Positions 725 to 14,654 of a stretch of 60,601 nucleotides of DNA are shown one piece after another. The stretch lies in NCBI GenBank assembly GCA_041738755.1, contig JBGSPE010000003.1, positions 1 through 60,601 of the forward strand, given 5' to 3'. Each line of letters starts with the position of its first letter. The first letter of the stretch is position 1. The notes beneath the pieces were generated by a model. The model was not told the DNA's origin. It saw nothing but the letters and a program-made list of their open reading frames with translations, and did not search any database. Position numbers and translations under genes: made by a program. Source of the stretch: Minisyncoccia bacterium. GTDB taxonomy: Bacteria; Patescibacteriota; Minisyncoccia; Phycocordibacterales; UBA918.

Positions 725-1357
725 CTATTTTGTGACAACGATATCCTTCAAATCTCGTCGCACCTTGATATAGTGTTGCCATTCATCAGTTGAAGAACGG
801 TACCCCACGGCCAAAAGCACACCCGCGGTGAGGTTGTGTTCTTTTAATCCGAGTACTTCATCAAATCCAGCTGGATTAAATCCTTCCAGGGCGTGGTTAT
901 CAACCTCAAGCAGTGAAGCCTGGGCCATCATGCCACCAAGAGCCAAGAAGGCTTGTCGTTTCGCCCAGACGAGTCGCTCTGCTTCAGATCGAGCAACAAT
1001 ATCACCCACCATGACATCCTTGAAACCATCAGCACTACCGGCAGGAAGGTTTCTGGTTGTTTCAATTCGCGCAGTGTATTCCGCTACAAAAGCTTCATCA
1101 ATGTCGGTTCGAGCCGCAATCACAATCAGGTGTGAATTTTCAGCTACGTGCTTTTGACCATACGCATGCTCAACCAGTGATTGCTTAACAACTTCATCAC
1201 TCACCACCACAAATGAAAATGGTTGGAGACCGTAGGCGGTTGGCATTAAATTACCAGCGGTTAAAATTGCCTCGAGTGTTTCTTCGGGAACCTTCTTTTC
1301 GGTATCAAATTGATTGACGGCATATCGCCACGCCAGTGCTTCGGTTAAGGTATGCAT
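725..1357 (-). CDS. NAD(P)H-dependent nitroreductase (NfsB-like)
   Basis: WRYAVNQFD (RxxxKxF-like FMN motif), PTAYGLQPF and EGFN motifs. Confidence 0.9.
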   Translation of the reverse strand: MHTLTEALAWRYAVNQFDTEKKVPEETLEAILTAGNLMPTAYGLQPFSFVVVSDEVVKQSLVEHAYGQKHVAENSHLIVIAARTDIDEAFVAEYTARIETTRNLPAGSADGFKDVMVGDIVARSEAERLVWAKRQAFLALGGMMAQASLLEVDNHALEGFNPAGFDEVLGLKEHNLTAGVLLAVGYRSSTDEWQHYIKVRRDLKDIVVTK

Positions 1358-1482: not shown

Positions 1483-1779
1483 ATGCATGAAGACGCCGGA
1501 AAACACACCTGCCCTATCACCAAAGTAGCTGAGCTCCTGTCCGATACCTGGACCATGTTAATTATGCGAGCTCTCACCGAAGGCCCGAAGCGCTTCAGTG
1601 AGCTAAAGATCTGGCTTGATACCATTTCTACCAGAACCCTCACCCTAAAACTGCAGAAACTTACGATCGAGGGGTTAATAGAAAAAACACCCGATGGACT
1701 CTATAAAGTAACTGAAAAAGGTGCCGGTTTAAAAATCATTGAGCGTGCAATGGTGAAATATAGCGAAAAATATTTGTAA
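1483..1779 (+). CDS. HxlR/DUF24 (MarR-type winged-helix) transcriptional regulator
   Basis: CPITKVAELLSDTWTMLI..GPKRFSEL..ISTRTLTLKL..Y.VTEKG pattern with the conserved N-terminal Cys. Confidence 0.9.
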   Translation: MHEDAGKHTCPITKVAELLSDTWTMLIMRALTEGPKRFSELKIWLDTISTRTLTLKLQKLTIEGLIEKTPDGLYKVTEKGAGLKIIERAMVKYSEKYL

Positions 1780-1782
1780 TCT

Positions 1783-2646
1783 ATGCCAGAACTTCCAGAG
1801 GTCGAAACCGTTCGACTACAACTTCGTCATAAAGTAAGTAATAAAACGATTGCTTCAGTGACTGTCTATCATGCAAAAACAGTGGCTCATGATGCTACCA
1901 TTAGCAAAAAGCTACGAGGTAAAACTATCGAAGATATTGATCGGATTGGAAAGTTGATGATTTTTTCTTTTACCGATGAAGCGGATTTATTTCTTCTGGC
2001 TCACCTCAAAATGACTGGGCAATTCTTCTACGTTGATGAAAACGGTACGGTCGTTGGGGGTGGTCACACCTTCACCAAAAGCAATCATATTCTTCCCTCT
2101 TCTCACACTCGAGTAGCCTTTCATTTTACAGACAATACAACACTTTTCTTCAACGATATGCGTCTCTTTGGCTACACGAAGCTCGCAACGAAGGCTGAGG
2201 TCGCTCTTGCCCGTAACGGCTATGGTCCAGAACCAATTGATCCTGAATTTGATTGTGAGTGGTTTACCAAAAAACTTCGCTCACGAAAAACGCCGGTAAA
2301 AGCTGCTCTCCTCGACCAATCATTTGTAGCTGGGCTTGGTAATATCTATGTGGACGAAGCCCTCTGGCGAGCCAAAGTTCGACCAATGCGAAGAGCGGAC
2401 CGGGTTACCAAAGCTGAAGCAGCGGCTCTTTGTGCCGCCTCAGGTGACGTGATGAATGAATCAATCAAGGTTGGTGGAACAACCTTCCAGCACTTTGTCG
2501 ACACTGGTGGTGATGCCGGAAATTTTACCGATTATCTACGGGTCTTTGGTAAGCAAGATACCCCCTGTTCGCGCTGTGGCACGATTATTAAAAAGACCCG
2601 CTGTGCGGGTCGCGGAACACACTATTGTCCCGGCTGTCAGAAGTAA
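1783..2646 (+). CDS. mutM: Formamidopyrimidine-DNA glycosylase
   Basis: N-terminal PELPEVE, HLKMTG, GLGNIY and C-terminal zinc finger CSRC..CPGCQ. Confidence 0.97.
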   Translation: MPELPEVETVRLQLRHKVSNKTIASVTVYHAKTVAHDATISKKLRGKTIEDIDRIGKLMIFSFTDEADLFLLAHLKMTGQFFYVDENGTVVGGGHTFTKSNHILPSSHTRVAFHFTDNTTLFFNDMRLFGYTKLATKAEVALARNGYGPEPIDPEFDCEWFTKKLRSRKTPVKAALLDQSFVAGLGNIYVDEALWRAKVRPMRRADRVTKAEAAALCAASGDVMNESIKVGGTTFQHFVDTGGDAGNFTDYLRVFGKQDTPCSRCGTIIKKTRCAGRGTHYCPGCQK

Positions 2647-2651
2647 CAAGG

Positions 2652-3119
2652 TTAGACACGACTTGGCCAACTCACCTGTGAAAGTGCAAAAACCATAATA
2701 CAGTATGCGAGTATTCCGACAAAAAACAGATATATCAAACCCATCGTAACAACATCAATTGCAACTGCTTTAGTGACAATATTACTTGTAGTAAAAAACT
2801 CATAGAGTGCATAAAAAAACAAAACTACAAAAGCGACGACTACCAACCAAAAAACTGGGACAGAAATATAATCCAAAATATCTTTAATTGATTCAGATAA
2901 AAACTCAGTATACAGGACCAGGCTTATCACAAAAAAAGGGAAAAAAATCAAAACGGCACAAAAATACTTTGCAAGTGGTGATTCGATAAAATATTGTTTT
3001 TGTTTAAAGAAAAAATTAACCGCAATAAGTAGCAGAGGAACAGTTGCTACTAAACAAACAATCCATGTCTGATCAATAAGTAGTTTGCTAAAGGATGTAA
3101 GAAATTTTTCTAAAAACAT
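2652..3119 (-). CDS. Hypothetical membrane protein (about 4 TM), AT-rich
   Basis: 155-aa ORF with four hydrophobic segments filling the intergenic space. Confidence 0.65.
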   Translation of the reverse strand: MFLEKFLTSFSKLLIDQTWIVCLVATVPLLLIAVNFFFKQKQYFIESPLAKYFCAVLIFFPFFVISLVLYTEFLSESIKDILDYISVPVFWLVVVAFVVLFFYALYEFFTTSNIVTKAVAIDVVTMGLIYLFFVGILAYCIMVFALSQVSWPSRV

Positions 3120-3171: not shown

Positions 3172-3396
3172 TTATTTGATATTTGGTTCAACACCAAACC
3201 TGCCCCAGTGCACCTTACCCCAGGCTCGTTCGTGTAAGTAGTAAAAGAGAATTTTCACCGTTACATCTACTACACCAACACTAGCTACTAATTCTAAGTT
3301 GCCAGTGACGATAAACACCACTAGCATAGTGGTGCCTGAAGCTATAAAACGCCACGTTATTCCTTTTGCAACACTGCGGGTATGTGATTCAGTCAT
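3172..3396 (-). CDS. DUF2061-family small membrane protein
   Basis: [22 protein letters not shown] signature. Confidence 0.85.
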
Positions 3397-3431
3397 ATAC
3401 CAAACAGTGTACCACTTGTTATACTGGCACC

Positions 3432-4100
3432 ATGAAGATTTTACTTGATTCGGGGTGGAAAAATCTCTTGCGTGATGAGTTCGAAAAACCGTATTTTAAA
3501 GAGCTGGACCGGGCCCTTTCCTATGCCTATGAGACGAGGGAGATTTTTCCACCTGAGCCACTGATATTCAATGCCTGTAATCATTGCTCCTTTGAAAATG
3601 TGAAGGTAGTCATCCTTGGCCAGGATCCGTACCATGGACCTGGCCAGGCCCATGGACTTGCCTTCTCTGTTCAAGATGCTGTTCCTATTCCACCATCATT
3701 ACGCAATATCTACCAAGAAATTGTGAGTGACATAGGAGGAGAAGTCCCTGGGAGTGGCAATCTCGAACGCTGGAGCAAACAAGGTGTACTGCTTCTTAAC
3801 ACCACACTGACAGTGGAGCCGGGCGAAGCAGGTAGTCACGCTGGGTGGGGCTGGGAGCAGTTTACAGACCGGGTCATTGAGACAATCTCCACGAAAAAAT
3901 CAGGCGTCGTGTTTCTCCTTTGGGGCAAACACGCCCAATCAAAATTGACATTGATTGATACCAAAAAACATTTGGCATTAGAGGCCGCCCACCCTTCTCC
4001 GCTCTCAGCGTACCGAGGTTTTTTTGGCTGTAAACATTTTAGCCAAACGAACGACTATCTCATCTCACAATCACTTACACCAATCAACTGGCTACCCTAA
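3432..4100 (+). CDS. ung: Uracil-DNA glycosylase (family 1)
   Basis: GQDPYH, GVLLLN and HPSPLS motifs; start moved to ATG 3432, 6 nt after TGTTATACT. Confidence 0.96.
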
Positions 4101-5659
4101 GCCAAGCCTGGGAAAAAGTCTTTAGTGAGATTTTTTTCTTTTACTCCCATCGACTTTAGTAACTTTGCATATGCCGCTACCATGCCCGGCGGACCAGAGA
4201 GATACCAATGCCGTTCTAAAACGTCTGGCGTCAACCGAGTAATCATGTCAGCGGTAATAAATCCATGCTCATACGGAGCCGTAAGTTGTTCGTCTGAGAG
4301 GACGTGTACAACCTTAAAAGCAAACGTTTGTTCTGCCGCCCTAAATGTATCGTTATAGGCAATTTCGGCCTGTGTTTTATTACAGTAATACAAAACTGTG
4401 TCGTGGGCTTTACCACTATCAACCATGTACTTGATGTGACTTCGAAATGGTGTGACACCGATTCCCCCAGCGATAAAGCCGAGTTTCTTTGTGGTGTCTT
4501 TTGGTAACACAAAATCCCCTGCCAGCTGACTCGCAATGACCGGTTGTCCGTTATCGAGTGTTTGTAAGGCGGCTTTGTAGCTACTGCCGTTTGGCATATG
4601 TTTGAGAGAGAGGTGTACGTCAGCCTCAGTTGGCGAAGAAGCGATGGTGAAGTACCGCCTGATTCCTCTTTCATCACTTTTTTGGTGCGGTAACATCCAT
4701 TCTAGATATTGCCCAGGCACAAAGGTAAAACCAAACGGCTTTTCAAAGATATACTCAAAGGTATCTTTTGCAATCTCACGTTTTTCTTTGAGCTTGAGGA
4801 AGAGTTTTTGGCGGAGTGTGAATGGATAAAACAAAACATTACCCACAATCAGCGCTAATTCTGGTGTCATTTTTATAAACGGGAGAAAAGCGGTTGTCTG
4901 GGACAAGAATCCCACAACTGCACCGTATGCCGTCTGCTGTTCTTTCCGAGGCGGTGTTGTAAATGGCTCAGTGAGCATAAAAAAGGCTAAAAATAACGTT
5001 GGACCTGACGTAAAAAATCCAGGAGCAATCATCGAGAGATCGCCAGCAAAGCGCCACTCTTCAAACACATAGACTAGGTATGCCACGGCTACAAATGAGG
5101 TAATCGGTACCCATTTTCGCACCTTACTCACAACGGTCGCTCCTGCGAGAAGCAGTGGGATAAATAATACCGGCTGACCAATCCACCACCCTGTTTCAAA
5201 GTACCCTGGCGGTAAGTCAACAAAAGAATAGATAATCATCACAGCGAGAGTACCAGCCGCAGCCGGGTTTATGATGTGCTGTTTTCGCCAGACGATGACG
5301 TATTTTGAAAGGACAGCAAAGAAAATTGCTGCCGCTCCAATTAATGAATACTGCAGCTCATTCATTTGAGCAGGAAGCACCAAGAAAAAAACAATCAAAC
5401 CAGTAATTATGGCCGACTCATGGTTGGCACTCACCCTAAACAAAAACGCCAGGAGAATATTACTGCAGAGCGCCACCCCACAAATGATGAACAATGAAAT
5501 GATTTGTTCTGGTACGGTATAGGGGGAAAGATTGAATAATCCTGCCAAAAGTGAACATATCACTAAAAAGAGCAGTGCGAGCGTGACAGTACGGTACATA
5601 CCGGTCGCATCAAGCTTTTTTTGAATAACGGTAATCGGTGCAAAAAATTTCTGTTTCAT
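4097..5659 (-). CDS. RnfD/NqrB-like membrane domain fused to an FNR-type FAD/NAD(P)-binding oxidoreductase
   Basis: About 10 TM helices with HIINPAA and [11 protein letters not shown] (RnfD/NqrB FNPA and FMATDPVT-like). C-terminal [17 protein letters not shown] and YLSGPPGM are FNR motifs. Confidence 0.85.
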
Positions 5660-5741
5660 ACGTAGTAGCATTGTACCTGAAAAAGTAGAGCTTTTTGAGT
5701 AGACCGTGTATACTAACCCGAAATAAATTTTAAATCATATT

Positions 5742-6248
5742 ATGCCAATCATTATTGCAATTGTTGCTGTTATTGCCATTTTAGGAGTTGGAGGCTATGT
5801 ACTGCAGTCAAATACAGTAGAAGATAGTGTTATTGCTCCGACTGAAATTACCACCCGACCGGAAGAGGCTACTAGACCGACAGAAACGGCAGAGGTGACT
5901 GACGCAGAACCAGCTCCGGCTACTACAGCGCCTGCACCAGTAGCTGAAACTAGTTCAGAAATGACATACAAGGCCCGTGGCGAGTATCTCACCCCAGCCC
6001 GAACCAATCACATAATTGATGTGACCCTTACCCTAGAGAATGGTATCGTCACTGCTGCTGATGTGATCTACGACGAAGGAGATGGCTTTTCAAACCCTCA
6101 CCAACAACGCTTTGATGGCGCGTACAAAGCCCAAGTAGTTGGTAAGCGTCTGGATGAAATCAATCTTTCACGAGTTGGAGGAGCCTCAGTTACGTCACGT
6201 TCATTTAACGAGGTAATTGCTGATATTGAAGCACAAATCAACGCCTAG
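5742..6248 (+). CDS. Membrane-anchored FMN-binding (flavinylated; NqrC/RnfG-like) domain protein
   Basis: N-terminal TM anchor, T/A/P/E-rich linker and C-terminal domain with V.LTLENG.VT and SRVGGASVTS ([S/T]GA[S/T]-like flavinylation site). Confidence 0.8.
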   Translation: MPIIIAIVAVIAILGVGGYVLQSNTVEDSVIAPTEITTRPEEATRPTETAEVTDAEPAPATTAPAPVAETSSEMTYKARGEYLTPARTNHIIDVTLTLENGIVTAADVIYDEGDGFSNPHQQRFDGAYKAQVVGKRLDEINLSRVGGASVTSRSFNEVIADIEAQINA

Positions 6249-6253
6249 ATAGT

Positions 6254-7117
6254 ATGGTGCAGGATTCCTTCCCAGCACTTGGAACAACCTGGTGGATTGA
6301 AGTATTTGACGATATTGATGCAGAACAAGCGAGCTCGGCCTTAGGCCGAGCTCGCTTGTTAATTGAAACCTTTGAAGCGAATTATTCTCGCTTTAAACCC
6401 GACTCCTTGCTTTCACAGCTAAATCACAAAGGTATCTTTGAAAACCCTACGAGCGAATGGCGGGATATTTTACTACTCGGTCAAACCTTATACAACAAGA
6501 CCAATGGCGCCTTTAATTTTCTTACTGGTAATATTTTGTCTAACCGAGGGTACGACAAGGACTACTCATTTACCCCCACCGGGACTCCAGAGATATTCTA
6601 TGACCCACTGACAGATATCGTTATCGAACCTGAAAAAGTAACACTGCGCCAGGGACAGGTTGACATCGGTGGATATGGTAAGGGGTATCTCATTGATCGG
6701 GTAAAAGAATTATTTCAAACCATAGGCATCCAGTATTTTTTAATTAATGGTGGTGGCGATATGTATGCCTCGAGCGATAACGGGAGACCGCTCACCATCT
6801 ACCTGGAGCATCCGCTCCAGGTAGAAACGTATATAAATGAAACGACTCTATACGAGCAAGGCTTTGCTGCCTCAAGCCCCTTTAAACGCCAGTGGCGGCA
6901 CGCTAATAGGACCTATTCGCATATTGTGAGTCAAGAACCATTACCACTTACGGCGACCTTTACAAAGGCACCGAGCGCCGCCTTGGCTGACGCTTTTGCC
7001 ACCACTGCCCTTTTATTACCACAAACAACACTAATCGAACTTGCTGCCCTGCATGGATTTGCCATAGCTCAGTTTGACCCAAGCATAAACGAAATCTGGT
7101 ATACACAGAATTTCTAA
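6254..7117 (+). CDS. apbE: FAD:protein FMN transferase
   Basis: ALGT, YSRFKPDS, DIGGYGKGY, INGGGD, SHI and ADAFATT ApbE motifs. Confidence 0.92.
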   Translation: MVQDSFPALGTTWWIEVFDDIDAEQASSALGRARLLIETFEANYSRFKPDSLLSQLNHKGIFENPTSEWRDILLLGQTLYNKTNGAFNFLTGNILSNRGYDKDYSFTPTGTPEIFYDPLTDIVIEPEKVTLRQGQVDIGGYGKGYLIDRVKELFQTIGIQYFLINGGGDMYASSDNGRPLTIYLEHPLQVETYINETTLYEQGFAASSPFKRQWRHANRTYSHIVSQEPLPLTATFTKAPSAALADAFATTALLLPQTTLIELAALHGFAIAQFDPSINEIWYTQNF

Positions 7118-7127
7118 CAATCCAAGC

Positions 7128-7174
7128 TAACACCACAAAACCCCCAAGCCTTGCTTGGGGGTTTTGTGGTGTTA
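7128..7174. terminator. Bidirectional terminator between apbE and atpC
   Basis: 22-bp perfect stem TAACACCACAAAACCCCCAAGC-CTT-GCTTGGGGGTTTTGTGGTGTTA between convergent genes. Confidence 0.85.
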
Positions 7175-7184
7175 CTACTCTTAT

Positions 7185-7445
7185 CTACGCAATGTTCTCA
7201 GTAGTCTCATTGACCAACAGAACTGCCTGACTACCAGGCCGTACTTCAAGCACTCCGCCACCAGTAGTATAGGTAATAGTGACTTCCCCTTTTTTAACTG
7301 TCATTTGGCCCGGACGAACGATAGTAATGAGTGGTGAGTGATTTGCGAGCACACCAATCACCCCTGACTCGGTTGGCAGTGTAATTTCGTCAACCATGTC
7401 ATTATAGACAGTTCGATCAGTGGTGAGGATTCGCAGGTGCAACAT
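7185..7445 (-). CDS. atpC: ATP synthase F1 epsilon subunit (N-terminal domain only)
   Basis: LPTESGVIGVLANHSP and GGVLEV; last gene of the atp operon. Confidence 0.92.
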   Translation of the reverse strand: MLHLRILTTDRTVYNDMVDEITLPTESGVIGVLANHSPLITIVRPGQMTVKKGEVTITYTTGGGVLEVRPGSQAVLLVNETTENIA

Positions 7446-7449
7446 AGGT

Positions 7450-9755
<2,306 letters not shown>

Positions 9756-9769
9756 ACCTCATTCATTAC

Positions 9770-11266
9770 TTACGCTGCTTTGGTTGCTGCAAACTCGGTG
9801 ATAGCTGATTTTAGTTCCGTTTCTTCTGCTTCACTCCAGCCTTTGGCGATTGCTGACAAAAGACTTTGTTTTGATGCATCGAGAAACGCCCCAAACCCTT
9901 CTTTCCAAGCAGCAATTTCGTGCACATGTAAATGATCAAGCGCACCACTGTTAACCGCGTAGATGTACGCTACCTGCTTAGACACGACAAGCGGACTGTA
10001 TTGTGATTGCTTCATTACTTCAGTAATTCGCTTTCCGCGCTCAAGTGTATTTTTAGTATCTTCATCGAGGTCTGAGTCAAATTGTGAAAAGCTTTCAAGC
10101 TCTCGATATTGTGCCAAGTTCAACTTCATTGAACCAGCATTTTTCTTCATTGATTTAATCTGCGCTGCTCCACCGACACGAGACACTGACGCACCCACAT
10201 TGATAGCTGGTCGTACTCCTTTATGAAAAAGACTAGACTCTAGAAAGATTTGACCGTCGGTAATTGAAATGACGTTGGTAGGAATGTAGGCTGAGTTGTC
10301 ACCTCCTTGGGTTTCAATGATTGGCAGAGCAGTAATTGACCCGCCACCCGCTTCGGCGTTCCGTCGACAGGCTCGCTCGAGAAGTCGTGAGTGGAGGTAA
10401 AAAACGTCTCCTGGATACGCTTCCCGCCCTGGTGGTCGTCGCAGGAGGAGAGAAATTTCTCGGTACGCTACCGCGTGCTTAGACAAATCATCGTATACCA
10501 CCAACACATCCTTCCCTTGCGCCATAAAGTACTCAGCAATAGTTGCTCCAGCATACGGTGCGAGATACAAGAGTGATGGAGCATCAGAAGCACCAGCTAG
10601 TACTACCGTCGTGTACTTCATCGCGCCGTGCTTTTCAAGCTCATTCACAAGCCGTGTCACCTTTGAGCGCTTCTGTCCAATCGCCACATAGACACAAACA
10701 ATATCTTCGCCTTTTTGATTTAAAATAGCATCAATCGCTACCGCAGTTTTACCAGTACCACGGTCTCCAATGATGAGTTCTCGCTGTCCTCGACCAATTG
10801 GTACCAAGGCATCGATTGCCATGATTCCGGTTTGGACTGGTTCAGACACTGGCTCTCTATCCATTACTCCCGGTGCAATTTTCTCAATTGGAAGTTCAGT
10901 TACATTCGTTAGTGAGGCCTTACCATCGAGCGGTCGCATGAGCGGGTCGACAATCCGTCCAATTACATCATCAGATACACCAACTGAGAGAATCTTTCCC
11001 GTTCTCGTCACCTTCTCACCTTCATGTACCGCTGAAGATTCACCAAGGAGAATGGTACCAACGGTGTCAGCTTCAAGGTTGAGCGCAATACCAGTCATGC
11101 CACTTTCAAAGGAAAGCATTTCAGATGACATACAGTCAGCTATGCCAGATACGCGGGCGATACCAGCAGATACAGATTGAACAATCCCGTAGGTTCCACT
11201 CGTTGGAGCCGTATCAGACGATTCAATCTTTTGTTGCAGGGTTTTGATTAATGCATCGGTGTTCAT
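9770..11266 (-). CDS. atpA: ATP synthase F1 alpha subunit
   Basis: GDRGTGKT and [24 protein letters not shown]. Confidence 0.99.
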
Positions 11267-11278
11267 AATGTAATTGTG

Positions 11279-11659
11279 CTAAGGGTGTAATAGATGGTGT
11301 TTGAGTCGAGTAATAGCGTCTTTTGTCGTGACATCAACGAACCTATGCGCATGTTCAGTTCGATATCCTCCCACGAGGTCTGTATCAATAATTTCTTCTA
11401 CAATAGCGTCGGGTGAAAACTGTGAAAGGATTGCTTCTTTCTCTTCCTTCGGAAGCGGATATGGTGAGTAGAGTCTTACAACGGCCGCTTCACGTTTTGT
11501 AGCAAGTAGTCTCTCTAAGTACCGAGCAACCGCTGGCTTAAACCCGGAAAGACCATGTGTCTCCATAAACGTAAACACCGTATCGATACTTTCTTTTTCA
11601 CCCATTCCGTCTTTGGTATACGCAAGAATGGCATGAGCGAGGGCTTGAGAAATTGTCAT
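11279..11659 (-). CDS. atpH: ATP synthase delta subunit (short)
   Basis: Position between atpF and atpA; C-terminal IDTDLVGGY..D.T OSCP-like motif. Confidence 0.8.
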   Translation of the reverse strand: MTISQALAHAILAYTKDGMGEKESIDTVFTFMETHGLSGFKPAVARYLERLLATKREAAVVRLYSPYPLPKEEKEAILSQFSPDAIVEEIIDTDLVGGYRTEHAHRFVDVTTKDAITRLKHHLLHP

Positions 11660-11670
11660 AGCGTATAGAA

Positions 11671-12162
11671 CTAAGCGGCACCAATAGCCTCCTTAACTAA
11701 TTGGGTGTTTTTTGTGACATCGATTTCTTCTTTAAGAATTGTCGATGCTCCCAAAATAGCCAAATCAACAGCTTTCACTTTAATTTCAGATTCAAGTCGA
11801 CTTCGCTCTTGAGCAATTTTTTCTCGCGCATCGTGCAGAATAGTTGCCGCTTCTTTCTCTGCTTCTTCCGCCCGACGCTCCTTCAACAGGCTACCATCTT
11901 TTTCGATAGCGCTAATGACAGCATTTGCCTGGGCACGCGCCTCAGCGATAATTCGCTCCCCTTCCTTTTGCGCCGCAGCCAAAGCATCTGAAGCCAAGGC
12001 TGCATTTGCCATACCTTCAGCAATCGCTTTTTTCCGTTCAGCTATGATGTTTGAAATCGGGCCAAACAGAAACCGCTTGAGAAGGTAGAAGATTATGAGG
12101 AAGTTGACGAGGTTAGCGAGCGCAACCTGCCAGTCAAATCCAATTTTTGCTAAAATTTCCAT
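11671..12162 (-). CDS. atpF: ATP synthase F0 b subunit
   Basis: NFLIIFYLLKRFLFGPI..ERK followed by a long coiled coil. Confidence 0.95.
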   Translation of the reverse strand: MEILAKIGFDWQVALANLVNFLIIFYLLKRFLFGPISNIIAERKKAIAEGMANAALASDALAAAQKEGERIIAEARAQANAVISAIEKDGSLLKERRAEEAEKEAATILHDAREKIAQERSRLESEIKVKAVDLAILGASTILKEEIDVTKNTQLVKEAIGAA

Positions 12163-12197
12163 CTGAATTCTTGAATCTTTTAATTAAAGCCTGAGCT

Positions 12198-12413
12198 TTA
12201 GACAATAAAGAATGCTACGAGTGCGTAAATCGCGGTTGACTCACAGAGTGCGAGACCAATGATCATTTTAGTAAAGAGAGAATCTCCTACTTCAGGATTT
12301 CGTCCAATAGCCTCCATTGTTTTACCAACAAGGTATCCTTCTCCGATTGCTGTACCCATCATCGCTAAGATGATTAGTCCTTGTGCAATATATCGTGCTG
12401 CCTCTACTTCCAT
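12198..12413 (-). CDS. atpE: ATP synthase F0 c subunit (Na+-type signature)
   Basis: Two TM helices, RNPE loop, GEG and ESTAIY. Confidence 0.96.
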   Translation of the reverse strand: MEVEAARYIAQGLIILAMMGTAIGEGYLVGKTMEAIGRNPEVGDSLFTKMIIGLALCESTAIYALVAFFIV

Positions 12414-12495
12414 ATACTTATATTAGGTTTATTGATAAGTGACCCTTAAAGGCCAATGTTGACTCTGAACCGAAGTACAGAAGCAACATTGAACA

Positions 12496-13284
12496 TTAAG
12501 AAGGTGTGTCGTCTTTGACTGACAAGGTATAAAAAACCGTTACGAGAGCCGTGAACACAATCGCCTGCACAGTAGCAGCCAGTACTCCCATCGCCATCCA
12601 TAAAGCTGGAACGAAGAAGGCAAATGAGCCAATTAAAATCGTGGTGAGAATTTCACCTGCATACATGTTACCGAACAAACGAAGTGAGAGAGAAATGACC
12701 TTGGTAACCTCTCCCAAAATATCAAGCAGGCCAATGAAAAATTCAATGATGCCAATAAATCCTGCTCCAATTCCTTTGCGAAAGCCTTGATATACCTCTT
12801 TAAACTTGAAGAATTTACCAAGGTAACCAAATATTCCCCACTCTCTAATTGAGATTACATTGATGGCAATAATTGACCCGAAAGCCAACGCAAAGGTGGT
12901 ATTAAAATCGGAAGTTGGTGTACGAAACACTGAGATTCCATCATAGGTAATTGAACTCACACCAGGAAGCAATCCAGCAAAGTTTGAGGCGGCAATAAAT
13001 ACAAAAATTGAACCGATGACTGGAAGAATAGTTTTGGTTCGTTTTTCATTTCGGGTGATTTGGCCAATCAAATCCGCCACCCATTCGTACACAGACTCAA
13101 CCACCAACTGAACCTTTCCCGGCATAACTGCCAAAGAGCGAGACAGGAGCCACGAACACACGCCGAGTACCACCGCAATTAACACGAGATACAGTGTTGA
13201 GTTAGCTACAGAAACGGTACCTATAGAAAAGACTATATCGGGGCTAACATCAGCAATTTCTCGTGGGAAGCGGAAGAATTCCAT
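12496..13284 (-). CDS. atpB: ATP synthase F0 a subunit
   Basis: PTSDFN, SLSLRLFGNMYAGE and VQAIVF. Confidence 0.97.
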   Translation of the reverse strand: MEFFRFPREIADVSPDIVFSIGTVSVANSTLYLVLIAVVLGVCSWLLSRSLAVMPGKVQLVVESVYEWVADLIGQITRNEKRTKTILPVIGSIFVFIAASNFAGLLPGVSSITYDGISVFRTPTSDFNTTFALAFGSIIAINVISIREWGIFGYLGKFFKFKEVYQGFRKGIGAGFIGIIEFFIGLLDILGEVTKVISLSLRLFGNMYAGEILTTILIGSFAFFVPALWMAMGVLAATVQAIVFTALVTVFYTLSVKDDTPS

Positions 13285-13291
13285 ATAAAAA

Positions 13292-13555
13292 TTATTTCTT
13301 CATGTGTCGTGTGACTGAGCGATAGCGGGCTATCACGATCAGCCAAGAGAACATGTACGTTGTAAAAAAGATTGCAATCGTTGCCGGTATTCCAGACTCT
13401 GGATACAGTTCCTGGACACGTTTATTCGCAAAAAAGCCTATGATTGCCGGCAGCCCAAAATACGGTATAAGTTCGAGCGCAAACAAAAAAATTCGGGTAC
13501 TGTAATCCTGCTTGGATTGAACAGTTTCACTTTTTTTGTCGGATACGGGTTGCAT
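13292..13555 (-). CDS. AtpZ/AtpI-like 2-TM protein
   Basis: Two TM helices, first gene of the atp operon. Confidence 0.6.
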   Translation of the reverse strand: MQPVSDKKSETVQSKQDYSTRIFLFALELIPYFGLPAIIGFFANKRVQELYPESGIPATIAIFFTTYMFSWLIVIARYRSVTRHMKK

Positions 13556-13847: not shown

Positions 13848-14654
13848 ATGGAACCATATGTTGTTATCGACAAGCTTGTAGGCGAAACTCCACTTTCTGC
13901 CGCTGAGACCTGGCGTCTTACTCGACCTGACCTAGCCGGGGTACCGTTATCCTATGCTGGCAGACTTGACCCAATGGCCTCCGGAAAGTTATTGGTGCTG
14001 ATTGGTGAAGAGTGTAAAAAACAAGCCAACTATCACGACCTCGACAAAGAATACCAATTCTCGGTTTTGTTTGGTGTGACTTCAGATACCGCTGACGTGC
14101 TTGGTCGCCTCGAATCAAACGATGATGTACCAATAATGACCCTCCCTCAACTACAAGCTATTTGTGATACGTACATAGGAGAACTAAGGGTCCCCTATCC
14201 AAAATTCTCATCCAAAACTGTCGCGGGAAAGCCCCTCCATATGTGGACCCTTGAGGGTAGGCTGAACGAAATCACTATTCCGACTCGGACCTCGACTATT
14301 TATGAGTTAAAAACAGTGTCGATTGAGACACTTACACGTGACGAAGTCGTAGATTCGGCTCTCTTAAAAATTAACAGCATTCCAGAGGTTACTGACCCTC
14401 GCAAAGCCCTCGGCGAAGACTTTAGACGTGCACCGATCCGGAAAGACTGGGAAATGTTCAGAGATGACACTCATAAGCCAAACACGTACCAGGTTGCTCA
14501 CTTTCGCTGTGTCGCTTCTTCGGGTACATATATGCGCACGCTAGCAACCCTCATCGCAAAAGACGCTGGCACTGTTGGTCTCGCATTTTCTATTCACCGA
14601 ACAATTATTGGAACCTATGTTCCAAACACAAAACAGTGGGTAAAAATCTTCTAA
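13848..14654 (+). CDS. truB: TruB-family pseudouridine synthase
   Basis: YAGRLDPMASG.L, K.Y, SDTAD..G, P.FSSK...GK.L and SSGTYMRTLA motifs. Confidence 0.8.
   Translation: MEPYVVIDKLVGETPLSAAETWRLTRPDLAGVPLSYAGRLDPMASGKLLVLIGEECKKQANYHDLDKEYQFSVLFGVTSDTADVLGRLESNDDVPIMTLPQLQAICDTYIGELRVPYPKFSSKTVAGKPLHMWTLEGRLNEITIPTRTSTIYELKTVSIETLTRDEVVDSALLKINSIPEVTDPRKALGEDFRRAPIRKDWEMFRDDTHKPNTYQVAHFRCVASSGTYMRTLATLIAKDAGTVGLAFSIHRTIIGTYVPNTKQWVKIF

Follow-up and report, generated by a model that had tools for sequence, protein, structure and literature searches.

Gene content of the locus

A stretch of 60,601 nucleotides from a Minisyncoccia bacterium of the Patescibacteriota (contig JBGSPE010000003.1 of assembly GCA_041738755.1; the whole stretch is hereafter the window, and the genome is referred to as G000) was analyzed around a flavin-dependent redox module and the F-type ATPase operon next to it. 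An open reading frame (ORF) map and Pfam scans of the window show that the module directly abuts a canonical F1Fo operon ( Table 1 ). The module consists of a protein in which an RnfD/NqrB-like membrane domain is fused to an FNR-type domain binding flavin adenine dinucleotide (FAD) and NAD(P)H, a membrane-anchored protein resembling NqrC/RnfG and predicted to bind flavin mononucleotide (FMN), and an ApbE-family FAD:protein FMN transferase. These genes and their coordinates had been recognized earlier from the sequence alone (the original prediction), and all were confirmed by Pfam or profile matches. The original prediction further proposed that the module translocates Na+ and that the adjacent ATPase uses this flux; such a Na+ circuit is not supported by the evidence given below, which points away from it.

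The fusion gene diverges from the gene of the FMN-binding protein, which occupies the 583 bp separating the fusion gene from apbE, and apbE is convergent with atpC. Because of these orientations, the module and the atp operon are considered to be separate transcription units. The 67 bp spacer between apbE and atpC contains a perfect 20 bp palindrome with a 3 nt loop, which folds with -40.6 kcal/mol (z -9.6) on one strand and -41.9 kcal/mol (z -8.6) on the other; 0 of 200 shuffled sequences fold as well. On either strand an inner G+C-rich stem is followed by a U-rich sequence, and the hairpin probably constitutes a bidirectional terminator between apbE and atpC. A terminator shared by both units had been proposed at 7128-7174; the strongly folding palindrome is borne out, at 7130-7172, whereas the terminator role is deduced from its structure. 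A scan for consensus promoters and terminators returned fewer sites than shuffled sequence and did not list this hairpin, since its U-run lies inside the outer stem.

Table 1. Genes and features of the redox module, the atp operon and their flanks in the window.
Feature	Position	Strand	Basis or remark
RnfD/NqrB-like + FNR fusion protein	4097-5671	-	524 aa; three Pfam matches
Fusion protein, C-terminal FNR-type FAD/NAD(P)H-binding domain	4097-4816	-	about aa 286-524 plus stop
Fusion protein, N-terminal RnfD/NqrB-like membrane domain	4817-5671	-	about aa 1-285
Membrane-anchored FMN-binding (NqrC/RnfG-like) protein	5742-6248	+	168 aa; family profile
ApbE-family FAD:protein FMN transferase	6254-7117	+	Pfam ApbE
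Palindromic hairpin, probable bidirectional intrinsic terminator	7130-7172	both	sequence and folding energy
atpC, F1 epsilon	7185-7445	-	Pfam ATP-synt_DE_N, E 1.4e-18
atpD, F1 beta	7450-8826	-	Pfam
atpG, gamma	8835-9755	-	Pfam ATP-synt, E 2.7e-74
atpA, alpha	9770-11266	-	Pfam ATP-synt_ab, E 2.3e-85, and ATP-synt_ab_C
atpH, short delta, 126 aa	11279-11659	-	Pfam OSCP, E 5.2e-6, profile positions 86-172 of 172
atpF, b	11671-12162	-	Pfam ATP-synt_B, E 9.3e-22
atpE, c, 71 aa, two-carboxylate Na+ motif	12198-12413	-	sequence and alignment to solved c-rings
atpB, a	12496-13284	-	Pfam ATP-synt_A, E 4.6e-39
87-aa ORF with hydrophobic stretches, AtpI/AtpZ-type position	13292-13555	-	translation
Nitroreductase-family gene	725-1357	-	flank of module
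HxlR-type regulator	1483-1779		flank of module
Fpg	1783-2646		flank of module
155-aa ORF without family match	2652-3119	-	flank of module
DUF2061 gene	3172-3396	-	flank of module
UDG-family glycosylase	3366-4100		flank of module
TruB-family pseudouridine synthase	13848-14654	+	beyond atp operon
GH15 (glucoamylase-family) protein, 658 aa	14651-16627	-	beyond atp operon

Domains and predicted cofactor sites of the fusion protein

Two Pfam families are recognized above their cut-offs in the fusion protein, namely NQR2_RnfD_RnfE (PF03116; aa 180-263, E 1.3e-8, 35.1 bits with a cut-off of 27.7) and NAD_binding_1 (PF00175; E 6.6e-16, 59.4 bits with a cut-off of 22), and a third match, to FAD_binding_6 (E 0.001), falls below the cut-off. 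The version of the protein held in the database begins at Met5. The FNR domain matches profiles of NqrF FAD domains (7qty, 2e-19), and its model is structurally similar in Foldseek to NqrF (8a1t_F, 3e-15) and to other FNR-type reductases, including the dehydrogenase domains of SpNOX (8qq1, 8qt6). It also contains two motifs of FNR-type reductases, RxYT and GGxGxxP, and GGIGVTPF is conserved in 33 homologues. The NqrF matches are limited to the FAD/NAD part (chain residues about 121-281 or 249-408); a 2Fe-2S domain is absent, and Pfam gave no ferredoxin-type match to the protein at E<=0.01.

When the membrane domain was searched as a single sequence against solved structures, nothing relevant was recovered and a family profile was required; the profile of 25 homologues matched RnfD (8ahx_D, 1e-6) and NqrB (7xk3_B, 5e-6) in the PDB. 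A full-length model of the fusion protein gave only FNR-type domains in Foldseek, and the membrane domain was therefore folded alone. The resulting AlphaFold2 model (mean predicted local distance difference test score, pLDDT, 89.2) has RnfD/NqrB chains as all of its best 15 structural matches (template modelling score 0.58-0.67), with Amt and urea transporters far behind.

In NqrB, an FMN is bound covalently to Thr236 in a loop spanning residues 215-271. Only about 9 counterpart positions of this segment are found in the profile alignment of the membrane-domain family, and no Ser/Thr motif is conserved at this place in 33 homologues, indicating that the flavinylated loop is deleted in the family. 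The sequence AGAT (aa 176-179) was considered as a flavinylation site of the NqrB type and rejected, on account of its lack of conservation and its alignment to an NqrB transmembrane helix. The residues that bind riboflavin in NqrB, T162, N200, N203, A205 and D346 (Hau et al. 2023, PMC10643135), align with T90, H132, N135, A137 and E235 of the fusion protein, of which N135 and E235 are invariant and H132 nearly so in 33 homologues. Since these ligand positions correspond and two of them are invariant, the membrane domain probably retains a site for a non-covalently bound flavin close to the cytoplasmic face.

The FMN-binding protein and ApbE

In the FMN-binding protein, a hydrophobic helix at the N-terminus precedes a linker rich in Pro, Thr and Glu, which is followed by a small C-terminal domain. 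Taken alone it scores 14.3 bits against Pfam FMN_bind (cut-off 22; E 0.065), and a profile of 14 homologues matches the solved FMN-binding domain 8p2a_A with an E of 1.2e-4. Ser149 is the only residue invariant in these 14 homologues and it aligns with the Thr of the SGAT motif in 8p2a_A. Its context is RVGGAS, and the sequence S-R-V-G-G-A-S shares the G-A-S core with the flavinylation motif D-x-x-[ST]-G-A-[ST], having Ser at the first position and Gly at the fourth. Changes of D to A and of T to S are tolerated within this motif (PMC12052999). Ser149 is the predicted flavinylation site, and the enzyme predicted to act on it, ApbE, matches PF02424 over nearly the whole profile (positions 1-256 of 266, 105.5 bits, E 4.5e-30). 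Prediction of a complex between the fusion protein and the FMN-binding protein, each supplied with an alignment and run without controls, gave ipSAE values of 0.06 and 0.01 (mark 0.32), which speak neither for nor against binding.

A known class of flavinylation systems

Méheust et al. 2021 (PMC8238504) defined NQR/RNF-like systems as flavinylation gene clusters that include a protein with N-terminal PF03116 and C-terminal PF00175 domains, and counted 127 such clusters, mainly from Actinobacteria and the candidate phyla radiation (CPR). The module of the window has both families in one protein, clustered with apbE and an FMN-binding gene, and thereby belongs, by its gene content, to this so far uncharacterized class. 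As in the published systems, the NqrB/RnfD-PF00175 fusion is accompanied by a membrane-anchored NqrC/RnfG-like protein and ApbE and by no other NQR/RNF subunits. It differs in that the FMN-binding domain lies below the Pfam threshold and carries Ser in place of Thr, and in that ApbE is leaderless. Huang et al. 2024 (10.1101/2024.03.13.584918) modelled the two-subunit complex of Ktedonobacter racemifer and observed that the flavinylated Thr of NqrB/RnfD is not conserved in the class; in their AlphaFold-multimer model of this homologous pair, the FMN-binding domain sits on the outer face, at the vestigial FMN site of NqrB.

With the Na+-NQR of Vibrio cholerae and with RNF, the module shares a homologous NqrB/RnfD membrane domain, in which the positions of the NqrB riboflavin ligands are kept, an NqrF-like FAD/NADH part, an NqrC/RnfG-like protein and ApbE as maturation factor. 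In contrast to these complexes, it has no NqrA, no NqrD or NqrE (RnfA, RnfE), no 2Fe-2S domain of NqrF and none of the roughly 57 residues of the covalent-FMN loop of NqrB, and its electron flow would presumably be one-way and outward, as opposed to being looped back to quinone or NAD+. A further resemblance is to bacterial NADPH oxidases (NOX) and to MsrQ-like and PepSY-like systems, where a cytoplasmic FNR domain, fused or adjacent to a membrane electron-transfer domain, likewise serves an extracytosolic flavoprotein (PMC8238504). In this case, the difference resides in the membrane part, which here has the haem-free RnfD/NqrB fold (similar to Amt and urea transporters) and presumably carries flavins, unlike a di-haem ferric-reductase domain.

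In order to assess the distribution of the module, its occurrence was analyzed in a sample of 201 genomes from the same order and in one of 401 genomes from the phylum (Patescibacteria). It was found in 30 of the 201 genomes (29 full-length fusion genes and one cut by a contig end) and in 47 of the 401. Inspection of 1.5 kb flanks placed apbE beside the fusion gene in at least 25 of the 30 order-level loci, and relatives keep either all three genes or a pair of them. Also, 3731 database proteins were assigned to the fusion family at E<=1e-5 among 8000 candidates scored. These counts suggest that Patescibacteria carry the family far more often than would be expected from the 127 published clusters. 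With the module in roughly one in eight sampled genomes, it is therefore probably a main route of NAD(P)H electron disposal in Patescibacteria.

A Na+-type F-ATPase apparently acquired by one member of the genus

The atp operon encodes a complete F1Fo set, its order from 13555 to 7185 being the 87-aa ORF, a, c, b, delta, alpha, gamma, beta and epsilon. The 87-aa ORF has no Pfam or NCBIfam match and is called AtpI-like by its position only. The match of the atpH product to the OSCP profile is confined to the C-terminal half. Short delta subunits of CPR bacteria and of other phyla have been linked to large predicted c-rings (10.64898/2026.10.01.756066).

The c subunit contains the motifs IGEGY and CESTAIY, that is, a Glu on helix 1 and E-S-T-x-x-Y on helix 2, and its best matches among solved structures are the Na+ c-rings of Acetobacterium woodii (4bem), Fusobacterium nucleatum (3zk1, E 1.2e-12) and Ilyobacter tartaricus (1yce). 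Its helix 1 Glu aligns with Gln32 of I. tartaricus and E-S-T-x-x-Y falls at positions 65-70, residue for residue with 3zk1 and 1yce. The sequence thus conforms to the published rule for Na+-type c subunits, which combines E or Q on helix 1 with E[STQ][STQ]xxY on helix 2 (10.64898/2026.10.01.756066), as the original prediction had held, and the subunit is predicted to bind Na+ through a complete two-carboxylate motif like that of F. nucleatum. The whole-length alignment of the c subunit, the motif residues and the canonical gene order are shared with the Na+ F1Fo synthases of these three species; the short delta (126 aa) and the setting, a genome of roughly 1 Mb without detected cytochrome bd or RNF/NQR subunits, set the operon apart from the solved enzymes. 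An N-type ATPase was ruled out by the delta subunit, by the canonical gene order and by a score of 38.5 bits with the c-subunit model for alternate F1Fo enzymes (cut-off 130.85).

Complete Na+ motifs are patchy in the order, occurring in 11 of the 201 genomes. The beta subunit of G000 is 76-79% identical to those of Na+-type genomes from other families and 69-71% identical to those of its congeners, G055 and G158, both of which have H+-type c subunits. A tree of 21 beta subunits, selected from the 89 genomes with hits and rooted at the midpoint, places G000 beside G068 (support 94/87) within a clade (99/97) that holds all eleven Na+-type or ambiguous operons of the tree, G000 counted; the other clade contains the two congeners as a pair (100/99). 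Since the G000 subunit groups with Na+-type operons of other families and its congeners are H+-type, the tree suggests that the operon is xenologous in the genus and either replaced the ancestral one or was added to it. Na+-type c-rings appear to move between lineages as whole operons.

Occurrence of the module with respect to the ATPase

A c subunit is present in 89 of the 201 genomes of the order, and typing of all 90 c-like hits gave 11 with the Na+ motif, 3 ambiguous and 75 without the motif. Among the module-bearing genomes of this sample, one is Na+-type (G000), one ambiguous (G128, with Q...ETT..F), 17 lack the motif and 11 have no c or beta hit. The module occurs in 1 of 11 Na+-type and in 17 of 75 other-type genomes (Fisher p 0.45), and the comparison of its occurrence with Na+- and H+-type atpE, on which the original prediction had placed weight, therefore indicates independence. 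None of ten further module genomes, selected from other classes and typed, has the full motif, which leaves G000 as the only bearer among 29 typed module-bearing Patescibacteria. In the phylum sample, no beta subunit was detected at E<=1e-150 in 15 of the 47 genomes with the module.

Synteny was taken from the genome samples, given that a locus search with the single fusion protein found only one related locus (L001). In the phylum sample, 32 genomes have both the module and a beta subunit, and the coordinates of both are listed for 26. Among these listed matches, a spacing of 10 kb or less was found in G000 only. Module and atp genes lie on the same contig, roughly 14 to 62 kb apart, in G513, G514, G197, G480, G210, G433 and G475, which represent several families; for genome sizes of 0.7-1 Mb this seems closer than random placement would give, in a comparison uncorrected for shared ancestry and fragmented assemblies.

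Among the close relatives, the gene order Fpg-UDG-fusion recurs in G055, where the contig ends after apbE, and in L001. In G158 the module is again near the atp genes in another arrangement, with the operon beginning beyond the fusion gene, downstream of a DUF2061 gene. In L001 (377-5647 and 8483-11533), a V/A-type ATPase set (C, F, A, B, D) ends 2.8 kb from apbE, with three ORFs without family match in between, and the UDG, DUF2061 and Fpg neighbours are conserved on the other side. L001 had suggested that the module and V-type ATPases form a conserved pair; this was rejected on finding that none of the ten order genomes with PF01813 over the cut-off carries the module.

Proposed functions of the module and the ATPase

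On the gene identities, folds, motifs, distribution and synteny described above, we consider it likely that the module is an outward electron conduit, that the atp operon encodes a Na+ F-ATPase, and that these are independent units which abut by accident. In the proposed path, NAD(P)H would reduce the FAD of the cytoplasmic FNR domain, from which the electron would pass to a flavin bound non-covalently by the RnfD/NqrB-like membrane domain and then to an FMN attached covalently by ApbE to Ser149 of the FMN-binding protein. The FMN-binding domain would dock where NqrB once held its own covalent FMN loop, and the electron would leave to an outside acceptor, which may be Fe(III), a flavin, a quinone or a host surface. 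That a two-protein NQR-like unit passes NAD(P)H electrons outward was part of the original prediction; it agrees with the published model of the class and fits the conserved cofactor ligands. The module would have no dedicated ion-pumping part, and its role would be the re-oxidation of NAD(P)H in an organism without detected cytochrome bd.

Fermenting bacteria are able to run Na+ F-ATPases as pumps. The F1Fo enzyme of G000 would accordingly hydrolyse glycolytic ATP, expel Na+ and maintain the membrane potential, with the reverse reaction possible given a Na+ gradient. Because no cytochrome bd oxidase and no RNF/NQR subunits were found, the ATP-driven export of Na+ is the most likely direction. 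Searches of the genome also recovered no PF00999 Na+/H+ exchanger, membrane pyrophosphatase or SSF symporter; one gene of the Na+/Ca2+-exchanger family is a possible user of the Na+ gradient. The Na+-type operon may have replaced an earlier one and come to lie beside the module in G000 only, which would make the adjacency an accident specific to this lineage.

Several observations weigh against two independent units, and each of them is taken up here together with the alternative that it favours. The first alternative is that the two-protein unit is a minimal redox-driven Na+ pump, the gradient of which drives ATP synthesis by the adjacent Na+ F-ATPase. The module does adjoin an atp operon with the Na+ motif, with a common hairpin between them, and its membrane domain has the RnfD/NqrB fold. 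Hau et al. 2023 (PMC10643135) argue for a Na+ path, or channel, through NqrB, and in the fusion family the gate residue that they propose, F338, is invariant as F227 and D346 is kept as a Glu, E235. Against this reading, D346 is a riboflavin ligand and not an ion ligand (PMC10643135).

Other recent structural work locates the Na+ path elsewhere. Kumar et al. (10.1101/2024.06.21.599731) and Ishikawa-Fukuda et al. 2026 (PMC12901251) assign it to RnfA/E and NqrD/E, around the intramembrane 2Fe-2S centre, and see none in RnfD/NqrB. A search of the genome, which is 99.7% complete, gave no match at E<=1 to the family concerned (PF02508, RnfA/E and NqrD/E), which the control search recovered from 5 of 14 reference genomes. 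The premise of the original prediction, that NqrB/RnfD is the flavinylated, ion-translocating subunit, fails in this system on both counts, since the flavinylated loop is deleted and the two studies assign Na+ translocation to subunits that were not detected here. In addition, electrons moving outward from a cytoplasmic donor take negative charge with them and leave a proton inside, and by chemiosmotic principles this would dissipate an inside-negative, alkaline-inside gradient.

The genomic evidence is also unfavourable to a Na+ pump. Only 1 of the 29 typed module genomes has the Na+ motif, and no F-ATPase is detectable in 11 of the 30 order genomes and 15 of the 47 phylum genomes with the module; the congeners are H+-type and the Na+ operon looks swapped in; and the module and atp genes are convergent, as opposed to forming a single operon. 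The proposal that the module is coupled to a Na+ flux used by the adjacent ATPase is therefore not borne out by the distribution, which is independent of c-ring type and extends to genomes without detectable F-ATPase, and a pump of this kind is judged highly improbable. A search of the literature, mostly by title, found nothing that addresses coupling of the NQR/RNF-like module to Na+ ATPases. If such coupling were true, bacteria of the candidate phyla would possess a two-protein respiratory Na+ pump, overturning the view that they have no ion-motive electron transport.

A second alternative is an electrical link that is indifferent to the ion: electrogenic export of electrons leaves H+ inside, and cells using the conduit would then require an ATP-driven cation exporter, which may be any rotary ATPase for H+ or Na+, to compensate the charge. 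NADPH oxidases need a compensating proton conductance, and the FNR domains of bacterial NADPH oxidases (8qq1, 8qt6) are, as described above, structural matches of the C-terminal domain. F-ATPases show a modest excess among module genomes, both in the order (module in 19 of 89 genomes with and 11 of 112 without the ATPase; Fisher p 0.03) and in the phylum (ATPase in 32 of 47 genomes with and 167 of 354 without the module; p 0.008). Neither value is corrected for relatedness, and significance is overstated since the genomes, being related, are not independent observations. The module also lies within about 32 kb of the atp genes in 6 of the 26 phylum genomes with listed coordinates, and in close relatives it lies near three kinds of rotary ATPase, the Na+ F-type in G000, the H+-type F-ATPase in G158 and the V/A-type in L001. 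Charge compensation would fit these hints, and some general link between the module and membrane energetics is conceivable. However, about a third of module genomes have no detectable F-type ATPase, none of the ten order genomes with a V-type marker has the module, and the enrichment may mirror the richer gene sets of some lineages. Charge compensation is on balance unlikely.

A broader reading is that the RnfD/NqrB-like domain, together with the flavin tethered to it, acts as a much reduced redox-driven cation translocator, or at least as an electrogenic partner of the rotary ATPase, and that the whole is a minimal chemiosmotic circuit retuned to Na+ by the acquisition of the atp operon. We regard this as very improbable. 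If true, it would combine NAD(P)H oxidation at the membrane with an F-ATPase in an organism otherwise regarded as purely fermentative.

The remaining points concern the site of flavinylation. The ApbE of the module has neither signal peptide nor lipobox: its domain starts at aa 9, no hydrophobic stretch precedes it and only 8 codons separate the ATG from the upstream stop. The ApbE ORFs beside fusion genes in relatives (loci L001-L031 and L082-L087) are all leaderless as well, even when read from the upstream stop, with a maximum 19-residue hydropathy of 1.24 or less in the first 60 residues. Typical ApbE proteins are secreted lipoproteins, and cytosolic ApbE enzymes that modify cytosolic proteins also exist (PMC12052999). 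A leaderless ApbE serving a presumably extracellular substrate domain is not accounted for by a simple extracytosolic model, and its consistency raises the question of where flavinylation occurs.

The leaderless ApbE would suggest that the flavinylated domain is cytoplasmic; it would then shuttle electrons between the FNR domain and the membrane domain, which alone would deliver them to an outside or membrane acceptor. The second ApbE of the genome is likewise leaderless. Against this, homologues of the FMN-binding protein with an N-terminal extension show, in the alignment, positive charges before the anchor helix, acidic residues after it and long Pro/Thr-rich linkers, which suggests an N-in, C-out topology, and in the published model of such a pair the domain is located at the outer face (10.1101/2024.03.13.584918). 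ApbE is able to modify a tag of 7 residues and accepts Ser as target (PMC12052999), and flavinylation before export is conceivable because so short a tag suffices. A cytoplasmic location is accordingly considered quite improbable, and the outward conduit with an exported flavinylated domain is retained as the preferred reading.

Other flavinylation genes in G000 and its congener

A second cluster of the flavinylation type, of the same general kind as the NOX-type exporters, occurs in G000 outside the window (contig C3:18560-20788, - strand; locus L088 1560-3788). It encodes a leaderless ApbE of 299 aa (PF02424, E 5.7e-42), a hydrophobic protein of 208 aa without Pfam match and an FNR-type protein of 246 aa (FAD_binding_6 and NAD_binding_1). 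The cluster adjoins a response regulator and histidine kinase pair, and no FMN-binding substrate was recognized nearby. A VIT1-family gene, which would bear on an iron-uptake reading of these genes, lies on another contig (C9:51440-52102), beside neither ApbE cluster. The congener G055 has two full-length copies of the fusion gene, on contigs C10 and C12, with products 56% and 40% identical to that of the window. Each copy has its own FMN-binding and apbE genes, and the FMN-binding ORF of the second copy is made of two tandem domains.

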